Positions 5,424 to 38,738 of a stretch of 41,011 nucleotides of DNA are shown here, piece after piece; position 1 is the stretch's first letter, and each line of letters starts with the position of its first letter. The position numbers and the translations under genes are program-made. The notes beneath the pieces were generated by a model, which saw only the letters and a program-made list of their open reading frames with translations, ran no database searches and had not been told where the DNA came from. The stretch is from a virus (Duplodnaviria > Heunggongvirae > Uroviricota > Caudoviricetes): positions 1-41,011 of the IMG/VR virus record IMGVR_UViG_2563366930_000002; one strand, 5' to 3'.

Positions 5424-5860
5424 TTTGCTGCTCCTCATCATATCGACCCTGCAAGGCCGATTAGTTTCTCCACAAAACAGAGAAGAACACCTGCGGTGGC
5501 AGCCGCCCGGATGGATTGGGTTATGAGCCCGTCGTCCGGTGATGCTCTTCTCTGTTTTGTAAAAAGGACGGTACCAGCCGGAAGCAAGGGTACAAACTGG
5601 TACCGCCAGGACTACACACAGCATAAAGTTGTGGTGCCGGGTGCCTCCCGGTGCCTGGCGAAGGTTGCACACCAGACGGGTGGGTATCCACAGAAGGTCG
5701 ACTGTCAGCCTCAACCTTAACCCGCGTGCGCTGAGCCGCATTCACCACAACGCTAAGGATTCTCTTTGGTTGAAAATACTTAGCTGTTATGTGCCTGTCT
5801 TTTCACCACTTCAGGCTCGGTGGTATCCTTTTAAGCCCGTATACATAAAAGGAAAATCAA
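5424..5860. other. GC-rich, ORF-poor, hairpin-dense region; candidate structured RNA or cis-acting DNA site
   Basis: 15 bp perfect inverted repeat ACAAAACAGAGAAGA (5473-5487 / 5546-5560); GGTACCAG/CTGGTACC stem (5570-5604); CCGGG/CCCGG hairpin (about 5636-5652); no ORF with credible composition or signals. Confidence 0.4.
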
Positions 5861-6106
5861 ATGACTTTTGATGAAAAAGAACTTGATAATGCAATTAATA
5901 AAATCATCGTAACGTCGCTCTTTTCCTGTCTCAGCGACACTCAGCAGAAACAGTTCTACGAATCGGCTTTCAACATGATCGAGCGTTGTTGTTTCTGCGA
6001 TGCCGACGAGTTACCTGAAAAAATCAGGAAACAGTTGGCTGATGCTCTTCGAGTGCGACTTTCTGACCAATTTTCTGAAATGTGCTCTCCGAATTTGGAC
6101 AAATAG
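5861..6106 (+). CDS. Hypothetical small protein, 81 aa, opposite in orientation to the surrounding early operon
   Basis: AAGGAAA Shine-Dalgarno 7 nt before ATG; protein-like composition. Confidence 0.45.
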   Translation: MTFDEKELDNAINKIIVTSLFSCLSDTQQKQFYESAFNMIERCCFCDADELPEKIRKQLADALRVRLSDQFSEMCSPNLDK

Positions 6107-6299
6107 AAAAAGGCCATTTCCATTCAGGGGCTGATGGAAATACTTCAGCCTGTTCCAAAGCACGGCGTAAAGAGAACACAACTCCAGCCATAATCTGATG
6201 TTTCCCATTGGTCCAGCTATCGCCGCTCTGATCTACAGGGGCGGCTATGTCGTATGACCAAACGACTTCACAGTTATTGTTTAAAATCTGGACTTTCAT
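6024..6299 (-). CDS. Hypothetical small protein, about 91 aa from internal Met MKVQIL; 3' end overlaps the convergent ORF
   Basis: AGGTG Shine-Dalgarno 7 nt upstream of ATG at 6299; C-terminal 80 nt overlaps 5861-6106, so one of the two ends is probably wrong. Confidence 0.35.
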   Translation of the reverse strand: MKVQILNNNCEVVWSYDIAAPVDQSGDSWTNGKHQIMAGVVFSLRRALEQAEVFPSAPEWKWPFSICPNSESTFQKIGQKVALEEHQPTVS

Positions 6300-6427
6300 T
6301 TCATACACCTGCTTTAACATGAGTGCCTAGTGGCACAACATGACTCAACGAATCATCCTGGACTTCATATGCCCCAGGCGGCTACTTCGTGGGCGTCCTG
6401 CCTGTTCGTTGTCGGTAAAATGATATT

Positions 6428-6467
6428 GCTACTTAAAGTTGCAAAAATCAACTACAAAAAGTAGAAG
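6428..6467. promoter_or_regulatory. Putative OL operator cluster
   Basis: CTACTTAAAGT and ACTAC-n5-GTAG half-sites related to those between repressor and cro; lies in a 450 bp AT-rich gap. Confidence 0.4.
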
Positions 6468-6770
6468 TTAAGGGCATAAAAACGCATTTTGAAATTAATT
6501 CATTGAATTTACAGGTAAAATATTTTGGGGGCTATGATCAAAAAATTATATTGTGAAGTTAGCTGAGTTGTAGAACGTGATGGATTGTTTCATTGTGGCT
6601 GAGATCAGTATGTGATCTAGTTAATCATCAAGTGGGGAGAAGTCAATCATGAGAGTATTGTTGAGTTTTTGGAGGCTAAGTGTAAAACGGTAGGGAATTT
6701 ACTACTCAATGGATTGTGTGATTTAGCCTCGATAGTAAGAAAACTAGGGCAGGTCATAGTCAAAAACTTA

Positions 6771-7178
6771 TCAAAACATAAATTTGGCGAGACCTAAAAT
6801 CGCCAAGCCTGTTGCAACAGTCCATGCGATCTGTTTATTTACGGCTGATGAAATAGCGCTGTTGACTTCACTTAGGCTAGGTTTTTTTGACAACTTTTCA
6901 TCTATATCTATTTGTTTTTGAAGGATAACAGCGACATCGCGTCGGGTGTCGGAGAGAGCGTTTCGCAAATCACGAATGTCAGCTCTCATCTCTGCGAGAT
7001 TTGTTTTTATATCCTCAACATTCGCTTCTAACTTAGCGACTCGGGCTTCAAGCATGTCATCACCTCCGCCATCTCCACCGTGTCTTCTAATTGTGGGAAG
7101 TTCACTATTAAATGGTACTACATTATTTTGCGGCGTCGGCATTTTTTTCATCTTCCGTTTTTGCTGGGAACTTTTCAT
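6771..7178 (-). CDS. Coiled-coil protein with C-terminal transmembrane anchor (tail-anchored), 95-135 aa depending on start
   Basis: Predicted coiled coil (LEARVAKLEANVEDIKTNLAEMRADIRDLRNALS) and hydrophobic C-terminus IAWTVATGLAILGLAKFMF; AT-rich; start ambiguous (7178, 7151, 7142 or 7055). Confidence 0.6.
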   Translation of the reverse strand: MKSSQQKRKMKKMPTPQNNVVPFNSELPTIRRHGGDGGGDDMLEARVAKLEANVEDIKTNLAEMRADIRDLRNALSDTRRDVAVILQKQIDIDEKLSKKPSLSEVNSAISSAVNKQIAWTVATGLAILGLAKFMF

Positions 7179-7470
7179 TTACCCAGTTCAAAACTGAAAA
7201 CGCATTTATATGAATTTCATTTCCACAATTGTTGCATATTAGTGAAAAGTAATACTGGTTAGCAGTATCAGAATAAATGCTTTTTTCAGTAAAAACATTC
7301 ACATAACTACCAAGTTTCATAGTACATGGCATGCCCACATTCGCGCTGACTTGAGGCACAGTCAATCTGTCGTGTCCACATAGTGTACATTTTAGATATA
7401 TATTCTTTTCTGAGAAATAAGAGACCAACATATCCATGTTAATCTTTTCGAATCCCTGCTCACTAGCCAT
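7123..7470 (-). CDS. Zinc-ribbon-like protein, 115 aa, directly downstream of the repressor
   Basis: Two CxxC pairs (CTLCGH, CNNCGNEIH); 16 nt downstream of the repressor stop on the same strand; AT-rich. Confidence 0.6.
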   Translation of the reverse strand: MASEQGFEKINMDMLVSYFSEKNIYLKCTLCGHDRLTVPQVSANVGMPCTMKLGSYVNVFTEKSIYSDTANQYYFSLICNNCGNEIHINAFSVLNWVNEKFPAKTEDEKNADAAK

Positions 7471-7485
7471 TATATGCCCTTAGAA

Positions 7486-8190
7486 CTATAACCGATTGTA
7501 TTTTATTGACTCATGAATCAACGCCTTGCCCATTACATAAAGCTGATCCTGCGATTTTTCATCGATGTACCATTTCTCATAGGCAGGGTTATCCGAAAGA
7601 ACGGCTAGCTTGTCACCTTGCATTTGAAGACGTTTAACATGAAAAGTCTTACCGTAAACGAAAGAGTAAATTCCATCAGTCTGGAAGTGACGAACAGAAA
7701 TGTCGACAAACAGTCGATCTCCGGAAACGAGAGTAGGGGACATACTATCGCCATTTACAGTCATAACCTTAATATCATCCTGAGAACGGTTACCGAAAAG
7801 AGAACGGGCATGTTCTGTTGTGAACTCAATGGCGTAGAGCACATCAACATAGTCTGAAAGCATATAGGTTCCAGGTCCTGCGCTAACGCTAAGATCTAAA
7901 ACTTCTATCCTGTATACGTCGGGTTTTGTTGGATTGGGGATGCTTGCCATTTCCTTACATCCTTCTCTCTCGCCAACACCATATTCTAAATATGAAGCCG
8001 ATACCCCCAGAGCCAACGCAAGTTTATTCATGACAGAGGCACGAGGCTTCGCTGCGCCGATTGTGTATCGCCGCGCCATTTCATATGTAACGCCAACAAG
8101 ACTTTTGAGTTGGGTGACAGAAATTCCCTTGTTTGTCATTAACTCGTTTAGTCTCTTGGCGAAATCTGGATACTTCTGTTCTTCTACCAT
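7486..8190 (-). CDS. cI-like prophage repressor (XRE helix-turn-helix plus S24 LexA-like peptidase domain)
   Basis: N-terminal helix-turn-helix (KRLNELMTNKGISVTQLKSL); C-terminal S24 signature (VNGDSMSPTL with Ser, later Lys in HVKRL); longest ORF runs to 8247 but overlaps the operator, so start set at MVEEQKY (8226 also possible). Confidence 0.85.
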   Translation of the reverse strand: MVEEQKYPDFAKRLNELMTNKGISVTQLKSLVGVTYEMARRYTIGAAKPRASVMNKLALALGVSASYLEYGVGEREGCKEMASIPNPTKPDVYRIEVLDLSVSAGPGTYMLSDYVDVLYAIEFTTEHARSLFGNRSQDDIKVMTVNGDSMSPTLVSGDRLFVDISVRHFQTDGIYSFVYGKTFHVKRLQMQGDKLAVLSDNPAYEKWYIDEKSQDQLYVMGKALIHESIKYNRL

Positions 8191-8230
8191 AGGTAGAAGA
8201 TTACTCACATCACATACGCTCGTCATTTCT

Positions 8231-8265
8231 ATTTTAAGTAGTTGCAATTCGCTACTTTAAGTAGC
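8231..8265. promoter_or_regulatory. OR-like operator region between divergent repressor and cro
   Basis: Repeated and palindromic TTTAAGTAG / CTACTTTAAGTAG motifs in the intergenic region. Confidence 0.55.
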
Positions 8266-8297
8266 ATTATCCCCTCTGGATTTCAGAGGAGAAAGAT

Positions 8298-8561
8298 ATG
8301 TCATCTCAAAACTACACCGAGAAAGCAGTAAAGGCTGCGGGAAAGTCTTTATCTGAAGTAGCTCGTCGCTTTGGTTTTAAATCTACTCAATCTGTCGCTA
8401 ATTGGGTAATTAACAATCAAGTCCCGTCGGAACGAGTTTTACAACTTTGTGAGCTGGGGAACTGGTCCGTAACCCCCCATGAGCTGCGTCCTGATATTTA
8501 TCCAAATCCAAATGATGGATTACCAGAGTGCTATTCAAAAGTTAGCGGTTCAGTTGCGTAA
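8298..8561 (+). CDS. Cro-like helix-turn-helix regulator (YdaS-like)
   Basis: Divergent from repressor; GAGGAGAAAG Shine-Dalgarno; helix-turn-helix segment KSLSEVARRFGFKSTQSVANWV. Confidence 0.7.
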   Translation: MSSQNYTEKAVKAAGKSLSEVARRFGFKSTQSVANWVINNQVPSERVLQLCELGNWSVTPHELRPDIYPNPNDGLPECYSKVSGSVA

Positions 8562-8589
8562 ACGTAACCACAGAAACGAGGAGTTAACC

Positions 8590-9141
8590 GTGGGTAAGCA
8601 TCACTGGAAAGTAGAAAAACAGCCTGAGTGGTACGTGAAAGCTGTCAGAAAAACTATCGCGGCGTTGCCGGGTGGTTACGCTGAAGCTGCTGACTGGCTG
8701 GATGTAACAGAGAACGCATTATTTAACCGCCTTCGTGCCGATGGCGATCAGATTTTCCCGCTGGGATGGGCAATGGTTTTACAGCGCGCAGCTGGCACTC
8801 ACTACATTGCGGATGCTGTCGCACAGTCTGCTGGTGGGGTGTTCGTATCGCTTCCTGAAATTGAGGAAGTAGAGAACGCCGATATAAACCAGCGCCTGCT
8901 GGAAGTCATCGAACAGATCGGGAGTTACTCAAAGCAGATTCGTTCGGCAATCGAAGATGGGGTAGTGGAGCCACACGAGCAGACAGCAATTAATGATGAG
9001 TTGTATCTGTCAATTTCGAAGCTCCAGGAGCATGCAGCACTGGTCTACAAAATCTTTTGCGCTCCAGAAAAGAGTGACGCCCGCGAGTGTGCAGCTCCGG
9101 GCGTCGTGGCGTTTTGTGTCTGTGGAGAAACTAACGCATGA
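8590..9141 (+). CDS. CII/YdaT-like early regulatory protein, GTG start
   Basis: GAGGAG then 6 nt then GTG at 8590; follows cro as in lambdoid immunity regions; family assignment tentative. Confidence 0.55.
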
Positions 9142-14463: not shown

Positions 14464-14483
14464 AAAGGCGGTAGTACCGCCTT
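14464..14483. terminator. Hairpin with flanking A/T runs; likely terminator of the minus-strand three-gene operon
   Basis: AAGGCGGTA-G-TACCGCCTT perfect stem between convergent Q and the 205 aa ORF, with AATAATAAAA on the plus side. Confidence 0.5.
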
Positions 14484-15096
14484 AATGATCGAATCGTTGT
14501 ATGTTTTCATGGAATCTACAAAAGTGAATAGATATTTTGAATAGTAAAATGTAGAAACCAACTTGACTTAAAGTTATGGCTTTGCATTTATCATTCAAGA
14601 GTTTTTGTAATTCTTCCGTTGGTAATTGGTATACATCATCAAGAAAAACGATGCATTCTTCTAAGTTGTCTGATTCAGGAAGATAAAAAATATTAGTAAT
14701 TAACTGCTTCCTTATAGCATCAATTTTGCTATCTATTGAAGTCTTAGAAACTCCGTTGGAGAGAAGAATAGCTTCGAACTTAGATAAACTTACTAACGGA
14801 GCAAAGACTGCACGCATTGGCACATCACGATTATTACTTGTATCTATATCGCAACTGTTGCTTAATATAATGCCTCGTGTTTTTTTAGTCCCTTTAATTG
14901 AATATACTGTAAGCTCCTTAAATATATCTCCCTGAAGTGCAGCATTTTTCAGATCATCATGATAATTGCTAAGGTAGTAGTTAGTGTTTTCAGGGAAATC
15001 TCTAAGTGCATTTATTAGTCCTTCTTTTTGAGGAGCTGTTAAATAATATGGAATTTGATCTTTGAATTTCTCGATATCAAAAATGTTATTACTCAT
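14482..15096 (-). CDS. Hypothetical protein C, 204 aa, third gene of the AT-rich operon; no recognised domain
   Basis: Long ORF in about 30% GC DNA; ATG 4 nt after the upstream stop; soluble, Asp/Asn/Lys-rich. Confidence 0.7.
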   Translation of the reverse strand: MSNNIFDIEKFKDQIPYYLTAPQKEGLINALRDFPENTNYYLSNYHDDLKNAALQGDIFKELTVYSIKGTKKTRGIILSNSCDIDTSNNRDVPMRAVFAPLVSLSKFEAILLSNGVSKTSIDSKIDAIRKQLITNIFYLPESDNLEECIVFLDDVYQLPTEELQKLLNDKCKAITLSQVGFYILLFKISIHFCRFHENIQRFDH

Positions 15097-15099
15097 CAC

Positions 15100-15444
15100 T
15101 TAATCCAAGTATAAATCCCACAGTGAAGCATGAACGACTTTATTTATTTCACTGCCTAAAGACACCTGGTTTGTTGATAATTTTTCATAAAAGTTTGTCA
15201 TCGAGACTGCAAGTCTTTGATCAACTGAGATTGTGCTCCCTGCTTTATATGTTTGTGTGATGGAATGAACTGAATCGGTAGTTGAAGACTTATACTCCAA
15301 AGCGTGATTTTTGACGATTAAACTTTGTTGAGGACCATGCTGTTGATTTTGGGCAATGTCTGTTAATGCAGTTATATGCAGACTATATAAAACCAAAGTT
15401 AATACTTGAAGTTGAGCTCGATAAACATGATGAGACGGATACAT
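15100..15444 (-). CDS. Hypothetical protein B, 114 aa, middle gene; N-terminal hydrophobic segment
   Basis: ORF 15 nt downstream of gene A's stop and abutting gene C; hydrophobic LQVLTLVLYSLHITAL. Confidence 0.55.
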   Translation of the reverse strand: MYPSHHVYRAQLQVLTLVLYSLHITALTDIAQNQQHGPQQSLIVKNHALEYKSSTTDSVHSITQTYKAGSTISVDQRLAVSMTNFYEKLSTNQVSLGSEINKVVHASLWDLYLD

Positions 15445-15459
15445 ATCATACCACCATTT

Positions 15460-16209
15460 CTATTTGTAGGATGGTTCTAGTTCTTGAATTGTTGACTCTT
15501 TAAGGCAACTAAAGAAAGCTAATTTATTACAGGCGTGAAGATCATCAAGAATTTTTTTGGGTTCGTTTTTAAACTTATCTATTTCATCAGTATTAGTGAT
15601 TTGCCTAATGCTGTCTATGTCTAGGATTAGTCCTTTTTTATTAAATTCTCCATTATCTGACATGACTAAAGCATGAGATAATATTTGAATTATATTTAGA
15701 AATGCGCCTTCATTTTTATCGATTCTGATATTGATCGGATAATTAGACATAGACTCGCCAGCCATATTTAAGCTGACGTTTAGCTTATCAAATAAATTAG
15801 AATCGTCTTCTTTTGGGAAAAAATCTACATACTTTAATGAGTAGCGGATGATGTTGTCATTTAAATTTAATTTGTTAAGCTCATTTAATACATGAATGAT
15901 TTTTTCTCTAAAATGACTCCACCCTTGATATTTGGTGCTGGTGGATACAACAACACCATGGTCACTTAGTCCAATATAGTACCCTTCGATTTCGAGGCGA
16001 CTGACAACTGCGTAATGTAATTGTTCATCTCCCTCACGAACATTTTTAGGTATTTGACTGGGTGGTAAACTAATTACTGGTTTTGTACAACCTAGAGCGT
16101 GAAAAAGAAACCCTGGAACTATTTCCGATATTTGTGTTTCTTTAGAAAAACGCATTTCGAAAGCAGCTTCGATTACTGGTTGTTTTGATAGAGATGTTGG
16201 AATGAGCAT
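15460..16209 (-). CDS. Hypothetical protein A, 249 aa, first gene; no recognised domain
   Basis: Long AT-rich ORF; no transmembrane segment or catalytic motif identifiable by eye. Confidence 0.7.
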   Translation of the reverse strand: MLIPTSLSKQPVIEAAFEMRFSKETQISEIVPGFLFHALGCTKPVISLPPSQIPKNVREGDEQLHYAVVSRLEIEGYYIGLSDHGVVVSTSTKYQGWSHFREKIIHVLNELNKLNLNDNIIRYSLKYVDFFPKEDDSNLFDKLNVSLNMAGESMSNYPINIRIDKNEGAFLNIIQILSHALVMSDNGEFNKKGLILDIDSIRQITNTDEIDKFKNEPKKILDDLHACNKLAFFSCLKESTIQELEPSYK

Positions 16210-35859: not shown

Positions 35860-36510
35860 ATGCATCGTATAGACACGAAAACCGCGCAGAAGGATAAGTT
35901 CGGCGCGGGTAAGAACGGTTTTACCCGTGGTAACCCCCAGACTGGCACGCCTGCCACCGATCTGGATGATGACTACTTTGACATGTTGCAGGAGGAGCTT
36001 TGCAGCGTGGTGGAGGCATCCGGTGCCAGCCTGGAGAAGGGGCGGCACGATCAGTTGCTTACCGCACTTCGCGCGCTGCTGTTAAGCCGCAAGAATCCGT
36101 TTGGCGATATCAAATCGGATGGCACGGTGAAAACGGCTCTCGAAAACCTTGGTTTGGGAGAAGCAGCTAAAAGGAATGTAGGTACAGGGGCGAATCAGAT
36201 ACCTGATATGAGCCTGTTCGCGTCAATTAATACCGTAACGGCTGCTGCGCAAAAATTTCCGTCTGGATTAATTTTACAGTGCGGTCAGTTGAATGGTGCC
36301 CCGAATGTATCTTCAACATACGGGATGAGGTTCCCGATGACGTTCTCAAGAGTAATTGCTGTCGTAGTTACATTGAACGTTACTGGCGCGGCTGGGCAGC
36401 CGACTGTATCGGCGACAAGTGTCCAGAACACTGGATTTAATATTACTGTGTCGCCCGGTTCAGGATACGGTTCATCTGCTGATGCGTATTACATTGCAAT
36501 GGGATATTAA
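35860..36510 (+). CDS. Tail fibre protein (short, e14 StfP-like)
   Basis: N-terminus [47 protein letters not shown] is a conserved tail-fibre N-domain; C-terminus variable. Confidence 0.8.
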
Positions 36511-36514
36511 CAAA

Positions 36515-36916
36515 ATGTCATATTTTTATTCTGCATCGACAAACGGATTTTATTCGACTGAATTTCACGGCACCAATATTCCTGATGATGCAGTGGAAAT
36601 CTCGGAATCAGAGTGGAAAACACTGATTAATGCACAGAGTGTAACAAAAATGATTACCTGTGGTGAGAACGGTCATCCTGTCATTGTTGACCGTCCTTCT
36701 CCAACACCAGAACAATTAGCCTTAATAAATGATGAAAAGAAATCTGCACTGATAGCAGAGGCAACGAATGTAATAGCTCCGCTTCAGGATGCGGTTGATT
36801 TAGGTATGGCAACAGATGATGAAACGAAACTGTTACTGGCATGGAAAAAATATCGGGTGCTGCTTATGCGTGTTAATGTAGTAAAACCCGAGTGGCCTAT
36901 GCATCCAAATAAATAG
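36515..36916 (+). CDS. Tail fibre assembly protein (Tfa)
   Basis: MSYFYSASTNGFY... typical Tfa N-terminus; starts 5 nt after the fibre stop. Confidence 0.8.
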   Translation: MSYFYSASTNGFYSTEFHGTNIPDDAVEISESEWKTLINAQSVTKMITCGENGHPVIVDRPSPTPEQLALINDEKKSALIAEATNVIAPLQDAVDLGMATDDETKLLLAWKKYRVLLMRVNVVKPEWPMHPNK

Positions 36917-37688: not shown

Positions 37689-38738
37689 TCATTTTATCAA
37701 AAATGGCCCACCGACTGTCCTCGATAGCCAATGGCCAATTTTATCTGATACATATACACAAATACAGGTATATATGATTGCGCAGATAGGATTTGGAATG
37801 GTCACGCTGAAGCCTATGATTGCTAAAGCCATAGGGATAAATAATTTGGTGATATACTCCATTCCACATATGTTAAGAGTATTTCTTCCAGCTCTTACAA
37901 TAAAGTCATTCCCACAAATTATTTTTGCTATAAAGATATTAAATATTATCAAGCCTACCGTGGTGATAATAGTATTAATAGCTTGAATATAACTACTTGA
38001 TATTATGTCTGCATTGAATATTGAGATAATCTTAAAAAGCAAAGGTTTCTGGTTAAGGAGTTGATACGCACTCATTATCGCGGTAATTGAGAAGACAATG
38101 AAACCAATTTTAGATTTTCCAAAAAACCTGTCACGTGTTAATTCTAAAAACATACATCTACCGAGAGGCAATAACCACCAGTATGCCATAGCGGAGTCTA
38201 TGTTCCAAAACCATTGAGGATCTAGTAATGGGTTATGATTGAGCACTGTTTGTGACAACATGAACGATAATAGTGATATGATTAAAATCACTATATTGTT
38301 CTTGACTATTTCTTTAAAGATTGCATCAATTGCTATTATAACAAAAAGGCAGTTTATAAACCATATTGTTCCTACAAATTGGTTGTTTCTAACACCATAT
38401 ATTATATCATAAATGTGGCTATATATATAATCAATCGTCTCACCTGAGTTAATTGTGTTTATTATTAATATAGTAAATGCAAAAGTGAAATATGGAATCA
38501 TTAATCTGTAAAACTTTGACTTGATATAATCGAAAATAGATAAGTCATTTTTTTTGATAGTAAAAAAACCAGCAGCGAAAAAGAATAGTGGGACGTGATA
38601 ACTAAAAACAAAAGGATACAATTTGCCAGCCCCCAAACCAAGGTGACCTAAATATATAGCAAAAATACCGAGAAATTTTAAAGCATCAACCCAATCATGC
38701 CTTGTTTTTCTGTTGTTGTCGATTTTGTTATTATACAT
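37689..38738 (-). CDS. Integral-membrane acyltransferase (acyltransferase family 3, OafA/Oac-like O-antigen acetylase)
   Basis: 349 aa with about 10 hydrophobic segments; N-terminal motif RHDWVDALKFLGIFAIYLGH; about 28% GC. Confidence 0.85.
   Translation of the reverse strand: MYNNKIDNNRKTRHDWVDALKFLGIFAIYLGHLGLGAGKLYPFVFSYHVPLFFFAAGFFTIKKNDLSIFDYIKSKFYRLMIPYFTFAFTILIINTINSGETIDYIYSHIYDIIYGVRNNQFVGTIWFINCLFVIIAIDAIFKEIVKNNIVILIISLLSFMLSQTVLNHNPLLDPQWFWNIDSAMAYWWLLPLGRCMFLELTRDRFFGKSKIGFIVFSITAIMSAYQLLNQKPLLFKIISIFNADIISSSYIQAINTIITTVGLIIFNIFIAKIICGNDFIVRAGRNTLNICGMEYITKLFIPMALAIIGFSVTIPNPICAIIYTCICVYVSDKIGHWLSRTVGGPFLIK

Follow-up and report, generated by a model that had tools for sequence, protein, structure and literature searches.

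A two-gene module in the rexAB position of a lambdoid Escherichia coli prophage, predicted to join exchangeable soluble partners to a coiled-coil membrane protein with a conserved internal start

The window analysed here, that is, the whole 41,011-nucleotide stretch of the IMG/VR virus record IMGVR_UViG_2563366930_000002, is a lambdoid Escherichia coli prophage, and our subject is a pair of small genes in its immunity region, the open reading frames ORF1 and ORF2. ORF1 encodes a putative zinc-ribbon protein and ORF2 a coiled-coil protein with a predicted membrane tail anchor, and together they would make up an accessory (moron) unit of two components within the immunity region. The segment 6400-8300 recurs with 100% identity in prophages of strain GB089, where the prophage adjoins tRNA-Thr downstream of proA, and with at least 99% identity in 14 other genomes; megablast found no match for it among cultured phage genomes. 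The genes and operators of the region are the following:

6422-6478, no strand: OL-like operator cluster, with copies of the OR palindrome at 6429-6441 and 6452-6464, closing the immunity region
6771-7178, minus strand: ORF2, longest open reading frame, 135 amino acids
7123-7470, minus strand: ORF1, zinc-ribbon partner protein of the phrog_4293 family, 115 amino acids, with an acidic C-terminal tail
7486-8190, minus strand: cI-like prophage repressor, with HTH_3 (Pfam E 2e-5) and Peptidase_S24 (Pfam E 8e-17) domains
8184-8271, no strand: OR-like operator cluster, with three palindromes CTAyTTTAAGTAG (8184-8264) between the repressor and the cro-like gene, found by repeat search
8298-8561, plus strand: cro-like regulator (YdaS/HTH; Pfam YdaS_toxin E 4.6e-11; phrog_35), divergent from the repressor

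The first-pass annotation, made from the letters of this DNA, had placed two AT-rich genes directly downstream of the repressor, on its strand and before an OL-like gap, and had likened their position to that of rexAB in lambda. Each of these points was borne out. The repressor, an XRE family regulator of 705 nucleotides in RefSeq and presumably the first gene of the maintenance transcript, is followed on the same strand by ORF1 after a gap of 15 nucleotides, and operator copies flank the block formed by the repressor, ORF1 and ORF2, which fills the whole interval from the OL-like to the OR-like cluster as cI-rexA-rexB does in lambda. Two inverted arms of 57 nucleotides (6422-6478 versus 8215-8271) are 75% complementary. 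The G+C content is 37-39% across ORF1-ORF2 as against about 43-50% in the flanks. Sibling pairs lie likewise in phages with annotated transcription: in HK544, for which lambda-like PRM, PR and PL are annotated, HK544_041/HK544_040 sit exactly between the repressor and PL, and in VT1-Sakai, the Stx1 prophage of O157 Sakai, ECs2991/ECs2992 are followed by the annotated terminator of the pRM transcript. The window pair is probably co-transcribed with the repressor in lysogens. Beyond the ORF2 stop, a non-coding spacer of about 290 nucleotides (6479-6770) leads to the OL-like operators; folding revealed no unusually stable RNA structure in 6470-6790, and no Rfam family was found in 5800-8700. A promoter-like site with 10/12 matches is present in this spacer on the minus strand (6574-6545).

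Both open reading frames had been called correctly on the minus strand, and they are real genes, since they have conserved homologues and their synonymous sites are saturated at a dN of 0.12-0.76 (the N-terminal region of ORF2 included). In ORF1, whose ATG has a candidate ribosome-binding site (AAGGG) 6 nucleotides upstream, the two CxxC pairs already noted in the 115-residue product (C28xxC31 and C79xxC82; codons 7387-7389, 7378-7380, 7234-7236 and 7225-7227) are the signature of a family, as alignment of 32 members leaves only C28, C31, C79, C82 and W96 invariant besides Met1. An AlphaFold2 model built from the family alignment (predicted local distance difference test score, pLDDT, 83.7) starts with an N-terminal helix, carries both CxxC knuckles on beta hairpins, places W96 in a C-terminal helix and ends in an acidic tail that is disordered. 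Four conserved cysteines in two knuckles on beta hairpins are the features of a zinc ribbon, and the protein is predicted to bind metal.

The ORF1 family is rare, with 30 clusters at E<=0.001 in a profile search of 1.8 billion representatives, and a structure search in BFVD returned one unnamed viral protein. Weak fold matches were obtained to Rpb9, TFS4 and TFIIB, and Pfam CpXC (PF14353) scored 18.3 bits (E 0.0025), below its 25.4-bit gathering threshold. CpXC and the TFIIS/Rpb9-type zinc ribbons share with ORF1 two CxxC pairs on beta hairpins, whereas the ORF1 family adds the N-terminal helix, the C-terminal helix with its invariant tryptophan and the acidic tail. The earlier statement that neither protein matches a known family has to be divided: both belong to PHROG families, ORF1 to phrog_4293 (E 5e-31) and ORF2 to phrog_3556, but the function of both families is indeed unknown. 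These family assignments, the overlap of the two genes and the conserved internal start of ORF2 were all absent from the first-pass annotation.

The likely start of ORF2 differs from the annotated one. The RefSeq protein (WP_225387180.1) begins at M10 (7149-7151), where GGAAG abuts the ATG with zero spacer. The likeliest start is M13 (ATG at 7140-7142), because GGAAG then lies 9 nucleotides upstream and the N-termini of homologues begin MPTP; ORF1 and ORF2 overlap by 20 nucleotides if this start is used. From M13, the product is divided as follows:

6771-7142, minus strand: ORF2 long isoform from M13, 123 amino acids, with GGAAG 9 nucleotides upstream of ATG 7142; phrog_3556, E 1.5e-47
7077-7142, minus strand: N-terminal adaptor peptide (MPTPQNNVVPFNSELPTIRRH), co-varying with the partner subtype, ratio of non-synonymous to synonymous substitution (omega) 0.12-0.45, predicted to bind ORF1
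7056-7079, minus strand: glycine-rich linker GGDGGGDD, which also carries the internal Shine-Dalgarno motif GGAGG at 7063-7067
6882-7052, minus strand: continuous heptad coiled coil, residues 43-99, from a heptad scan and family alignments, including the family signature LEARVAKLEANVEDIK
6774-6830, minus strand: C-terminal transmembrane anchor, residues 117-135, Kyte-Doolittle 1.70, the protein ending inside or just after the helix
6771-7055, minus strand: predicted short isoform from M42, 94 amino acids, ATG 7053-7055, comprising coiled coil and anchor, XhlA-like

This layout agrees with the coiled coil and single C-terminal transmembrane helix that had been proposed for the protein. Residues 43-99 keep a single heptad register with hydrophobic residues at 14/17 a/d positions, and the most hydrophobic 19-residue stretch, residues 117-135 of 135, is also the sole hydrophobic segment. 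A single C-terminal helix behind a hydrophilic, charged N-terminal part, with no signal peptide, is the pattern of a tail anchor, and the predicted topology would leave the rest of the protein in the cytoplasm.

Homologues of ORF2 form 84 clusters in Enterobacterales (the phrog_3556 family) and follow a common plan: a variable N-terminal segment of about 12-95 residues and a glycine-rich linker, then LEARVAKLE(A/S)DVE(N/H)IK behind a nearly invariant Met, and finally a coiled coil of widely varying length that ends in a C-terminal anchor of one of at least three unrelated types. The most conserved element of the family is the start of the coiled coil. Protein lengths run from 94 to 221 amino acids. 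In some members, tandem 11-residue repeats (SVESSLSNKIQ and similar) expand the coiled coil, up to 221 amino acids (L090:1699-2364, L095:4923-5465, L091:4866-5435), while others have only 94-110 amino acids, and the length of the stalk is highly variable, since expanded and short members coexist. In one further homologue (L048:4740-5294), a run of 14 threonines stands in place of most of the glycine linker, with DGGDN-Met and GGAGG kept.

The nearly invariant Met is where the second start is predicted. In the window, GGAGG (7063-7067) precedes the ATG at 7053-7055 by 7 nucleotides. The internal Met codon is ATG in 60/60 distinct homologue DNAs, and 45 of these 60 have GGAGG or AGGAGG upstream of it, at exactly 7 nucleotides in most cases; most of the remaining 15 have GGGG before the ATG. 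At codon position -4, glycine is encoded by GGA in 46/57 and by GGG in 9/57; of the glycine codons elsewhere in the linker, GGA accounts for 50/249. The same arrangement of Shine-Dalgarno motif and ATG recurs in the divergent proteins of SPN3UB, ST101, ENT1 and HK544. An in-frame internal start codon, with a putative ribosome-binding site of its own, is thus conserved in the family. A working Shine-Dalgarno element is the best explanation for the conservation of these synonymous sites, and two products would follow from it, a long one with adaptor and linker and a short one of 94 amino acids made of coiled coil and anchor, both of them presumably translated. Gene callers already disagree between the long and the short form, and many databases annotate the short one.

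To place the pair in its wider context, loci were fetched with the ORF2 family profile, 11 from genomes and 79 from IMG/VR; neighbouring genes were called with a simple open reading frame heuristic and partners were clustered by BLAST. At nearly every locus a small gene precedes the ORF2 homologue on the same strand, overlapping it or lying within a few tens of bases, and the architecture of a soluble partner with a membrane protein, suggested before for the window alone, emerges as a conserved and modular two-gene unit in about 100 loci. The partners represent at least four unrelated families: the zinc-ribbon type of ORF1 in 34 loci, family B (about 140-170 amino acids) in 34, D in 9, C in 8 and C2 in 3, with a few singletons. 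They have no match in Pfam and nothing above the cutoffs in NCBIfam, and their PHROG families are all of unknown function. No nuclease or other enzymatic domain was found in the partners, and no partner-effector fusion of the Rosetta stone kind among the homologues, of which the longest has 221 amino acids.

The gene upstream of the partner is a helix-turn-helix repressor in 20 of 31 representatives (of 57 distinct), 14 of them with an S24 domain. The other contexts are mostly a second recurrent site in the tail-gene region, adjacent to genes for Arc and antirepressors and 5' of the tape measure. Salmonella S107, SPN3UB and their relatives (L007, L041-L044, L103, L105) carry the zinc-ribbon and coiled-coil/transmembrane module at this tail-gene moron site, downstream of Arc-like and Bro-N/ORF6N/KilA-N antirepressor genes and beside an immI-like region, not cI.

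Across the loci, the N-terminal segment of the ORF2-type proteins tracks the partner family and even its subtype. MPTPxNVVPF occurs with ORF1-like partners, FGDFPKH or LADYPKY with partners of the RLEKVTPE...CPMCGS subtype, and a 75-residue GKLxxAYSD...GVEFS domain with family C. The membrane anchors, of which there are at least three types, combine with any partner independently of the adaptor. The same association extends to proteins that are otherwise unrelated: the ORF2-family protein of L073 and the 210-residue protein of L002 (phrog_5820) both begin M..YLRAV, and both coiled-coil proteins follow the same EFxDFxxxFKKPxxCxxCG zinc-ribbon subtype. In ENT1, ST101-KPC2phi6.1 and SPN3UB as well, the gene after the zinc-ribbon partner encodes a protein made up of adaptor, glycine linker, coiled coil and anchor. 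Purifying selection acts on the adaptor region (the omega range given above), whose synonymous sites are saturated, and the region is therefore translated. Because it both tracks the partner and is under this selection, we infer that the adaptor serves as a docking peptide for the partner.

The slot behind the repressor is also exchangeable. The window pair occurs in only 17/5426 E. coli genomes, and about 190 E. coli genomes carry the same repressor without it. In the two of these that were examined (L002:4964-5955 and L003:4955-5946) the repressor is followed by a zinc-ribbon protein of 105-120 amino acids, which belongs to the PHROG of ORF1 (phrog_4293, E 1.7e-33), and by a 210-residue coiled-coil/transmembrane protein of phrog_5820; the slot therefore swaps the membrane partner and keeps the zinc-ribbon family.

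These observations suggest that ORF1-ORF2 may be a phage-exclusion or abortive-infection module, expressed in the lysogen and placed at the inner membrane, in which triggered oligomers of mixed isoforms would disturb the membrane; we give this reading, which comes from comparison of sequences, a probability of roughly 0.4. A lysogen-expressed accessory module is indicated by the position of the pair, the swap of cassettes behind a constant repressor, the low G+C content and the exchangeable specificity subunit, and also by the holin-like relatives of the constant membrane protein. In the mechanism that we envisage, ORF2 would be a tail-anchored, cytoplasm-facing protein with an XhlA-like coiled coil and two nested isoforms, the long form carrying the adaptor on a flexible glycine linker and the short form, from the internal ATG, being devoid of it. 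ORF1, as the subunit for specificity or sensing, would bind the adaptor peptide, and long and short forms would assemble into mixed coiled-coil oligomers that stay inert in the membrane. An infection cue received by the partner would then cause the oligomers to permeabilise or disturb the membrane, or to act on incoming phage at its inner face. The anti-phage function, the membrane topology and the sensor role of ORF1 are all put forward here as predictions.

The holin-like relatives come from a sister clade of the SPN3UB_0025 and Klebsiella ST101 type, which agrees with the window family in its adaptor, glycine linker, internal Met and zinc-ribbon partner. Its proteins are named 'hemolysin XhlA family' in databases, with PF10779 on record, and match PF10779 at E 8e-7 to 8e-6 (26-30 bits, below the 34.7-bit gathering threshold) and a PHROG holin family at E 2e-6; the XhlA alignment starts 0-3 residues past the internal Met. 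For ORF2 of the window, matches to PHROG 'hemolysin' families have E 0.004-0.006. ORF2 is thus XhlA-like in plan and may be a distant relative, not a member by the threshold of that family, and the affinity of the sister clade with XhlA and holins fits an effector that acts on the membrane.

The same affinity bears on a different role, in the phage's own life cycle, where the pair would set the timing of lysis as a holin accessory or antiholin-like factor, or would modulate the switch between lysis and lysogeny. XhlA is a protein of the lysis cassette, and dual-start motifs like that of ORF2 are typical of holin/antiholin pairs such as lambda S105/S107. In PBSX, XhlA is described as a holin-type membrane protein essential for lysis (PMC6834076). 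RexA, in turn, modulates the lambda switch and is now thought of as a switch modulator (PMC11077077), and the copies in the tail region could be expressed late. We nevertheless consider such a role unlikely, as the gene stands outside the lysis cassette, most loci are under maintenance or establishment promoters that are silent late in lytic growth, and rapid swapping of cassettes behind one repressor would be unusual for a core function of the life cycle.

The interchangeable anchors and the coiled coils of widely varying length (proteins of 94 to 221 amino acids) would suit a tether or ruler, and several copies lie directly upstream of tape-measure genes. This raises the possibility of exclusion at the injection site, in which the coiled coil would be a tether or spacer that keeps the exchangeable partner on the cytoplasmic side of the inner membrane, where the partner would bind an incoming phage component such as the tape measure, ejection proteins or the DNA end, blocking entry so that the cell survives. 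SNIPE offers a precedent by analogy for defence that is anchored in the membrane, faces the cytoplasm and works at the injection site (PMC13190303). Such a block has low odds in our view, though not negligible ones: the partners lack any nuclease or further enzymatic domain, conservation is strongest where the coiled coil begins and not in the partner, and the kinship of the sister clade with XhlA and holins speaks for action on the membrane.

A toxin-antitoxin-like addiction or stress module would account for other features of the pair. Here the short membrane isoform would be toxic and the partner, the long isoform or both would neutralise it, so that the prophage is stabilised or host physiology altered, for instance through membrane stress or persistence. 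The two genes form an overlapping operon that is probably translationally coupled, the membrane protein is small and has holin-like relatives, and lambda-like phages often carry toxin-antitoxin modules in these regions (PMC4553209). Against this, the Pfam, PADLOC and NCBIfam scans gave no similarity to known toxin or antitoxin families, and four unrelated 'antitoxin' families, each with its own adaptor, are easier to understand as specificity subunits. We regard this explanation as improbable; it also overlaps with the exclusion reading, many toxin-antitoxin systems being themselves defence systems.

Several observations weigh against the membrane-disturbing exclusion module that we prefer. 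ORF2 of the window itself has no match to Pfam XhlA (PF10779) at E<=1, and the hhalign comparison of the short forms of the window family and the sister clade, with 85% probability and E 6e-6, covers only 34 columns. The interchangeability of the anchors argues that the transmembrane helix may be a mere tether and not pore-forming. The defence models of PADLOC-DB 2.0.0 gave no match, the best hits being coiled-coil noise (LmuB 9e-5, PDC-S64 0.008). In SPN3UB- and S107-like phages the module is away from cI, and its expression there may be lytic; in the window, no canonical intrinsic terminator was found 3' of ORF2. Finally, the bias towards GGA at codon -4 has a Fisher p of about 1e-17 in a test that ignores shared ancestry.

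The pair could tentatively be the founding example of a widespread modular class of prophage exclusion systems, with XhlA-type tail-anchored proteins in nested isoforms, adaptors and at least four unrelated sensors, occupying many lambdoid rexAB slots in Enterobacterales; we see this wider claim as possible, at less than even odds. A defence system would give a function to phrog_3556, 12602, 6324, 6136, 4293, 5893, 12039 and 4231, all now 'unknown', would account for the genes that take the place of rexAB in many lambdoid prophages, one with Shiga toxin among them, and would provide a compact model in which exchange of a short adaptor peptide together with its partner re-targets one membrane effector. 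The conserved internal ribosome-binding site predicted within glycine codons allows nested isoforms to be tested directly, and it carries a warning for annotation, as the ORF2 gene family is split inconsistently into 'long' and 'short' proteins.

Two further AT-rich islands occur in the window. The first (14482-16209, minus strand, 32-34% G+C) lies just downstream of a DUF968 gene and a Q-like antiterminator gene and holds genes of 205, 114 and 249 amino acids without Pfam or PADLOC match. Its slot holds a KwaB-like gene in a related prophage, and for this reason it may be another defence hotspot. The second (37689-41011) follows the tail-fibre assembly gene (36419-36916), and contains two genes that we suspect of modifying surface polysaccharide:

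37689-38738, minus strand: Acyl_transf_3 protein
39455-40312, minus strand: multi-helix membrane protein of no family

After this island, at 40314-41011, there appears to be an IS1-type insertion sequence, judging from the translated reading frames.

Turning to systems already described, we found no test of genes of the ORF1/ORF2 type in the literature, with incomplete coverage of possibly relevant papers, and sequence profile searches against the PDB gave only generic coiled coils and zinc-binding proteins. Two candidates were set aside. The Tai tail-assembly-interference systems, whose paper includes HK544, are unrelated, and no transmembrane or coiled-coil features are mentioned there; ymfJ, downstream of the e14 repressor, is unrelated by sequence and architecture.

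XhlA (PF10779), known from the Bacillus PBSX lysis cassette, resembles ORF2 in that a C-terminal transmembrane helix comes after a short coiled coil, but it sits in a lysis cassette with holin and endolysin, whereas the window module sits in an immunity region with a partner gene. In lambda-like phages of Mannheimia, an 'xhlA' gene with one transmembrane helix is listed beside cI and has been read as a haemolysin (PMC4553209). In-frame internal starts whose shorter isoform modulates the longer one are known from P22/lambda SieB with its nested Esc and from the lambda S105/S107 holin and antiholin. Like these, ORF2 is a phage gene for a membrane protein, with a predicted internal start that would give a shorter isoform, though no homology is expected; unlike them, the ORF2 family has as its extra N-terminus a partner-specific adaptor of 20-95 residues with a glycine linker, and neither an extension of two residues nor a membrane domain. 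SNIPE, an inner-membrane-anchored protein whose functional part is cytoplasmic and which works where the phage genome is injected (PMC13190303), resembles ORF2 as predicted in having an inner-membrane anchor and its functional part in the cytoplasm. It differs in being a single protein with an N-terminal anchor, DUF4041 and a GIY-YIG nuclease, none of which is present in the window module.

The closest comparison is with lambda RexA-RexB, likewise two genes that follow cI immediately, on its strand and within the immunity region, one coding for a soluble and one for a membrane protein; in HK544, a sibling of the window module replaces rexAB. Of the two lambda proteins, RexB has four membrane helices. 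RexA binds DNA as a dimer (PMC11077077). Pfam and PADLOC scans at E<=1 assigned neither ORF1 nor ORF2 to the Rex families, and the window pair consists instead of a 115-residue zinc ribbon and a coiled coil whose tail anchor would cross the membrane once and whose gene has a predicted internal start. A rex-slot module with a soluble and a membrane component would thus be of a kind known from RexAB, built from unrelated parts, and what would set it apart is the modularity of adaptor and partner, the nested isoforms and the XhlA-like core.

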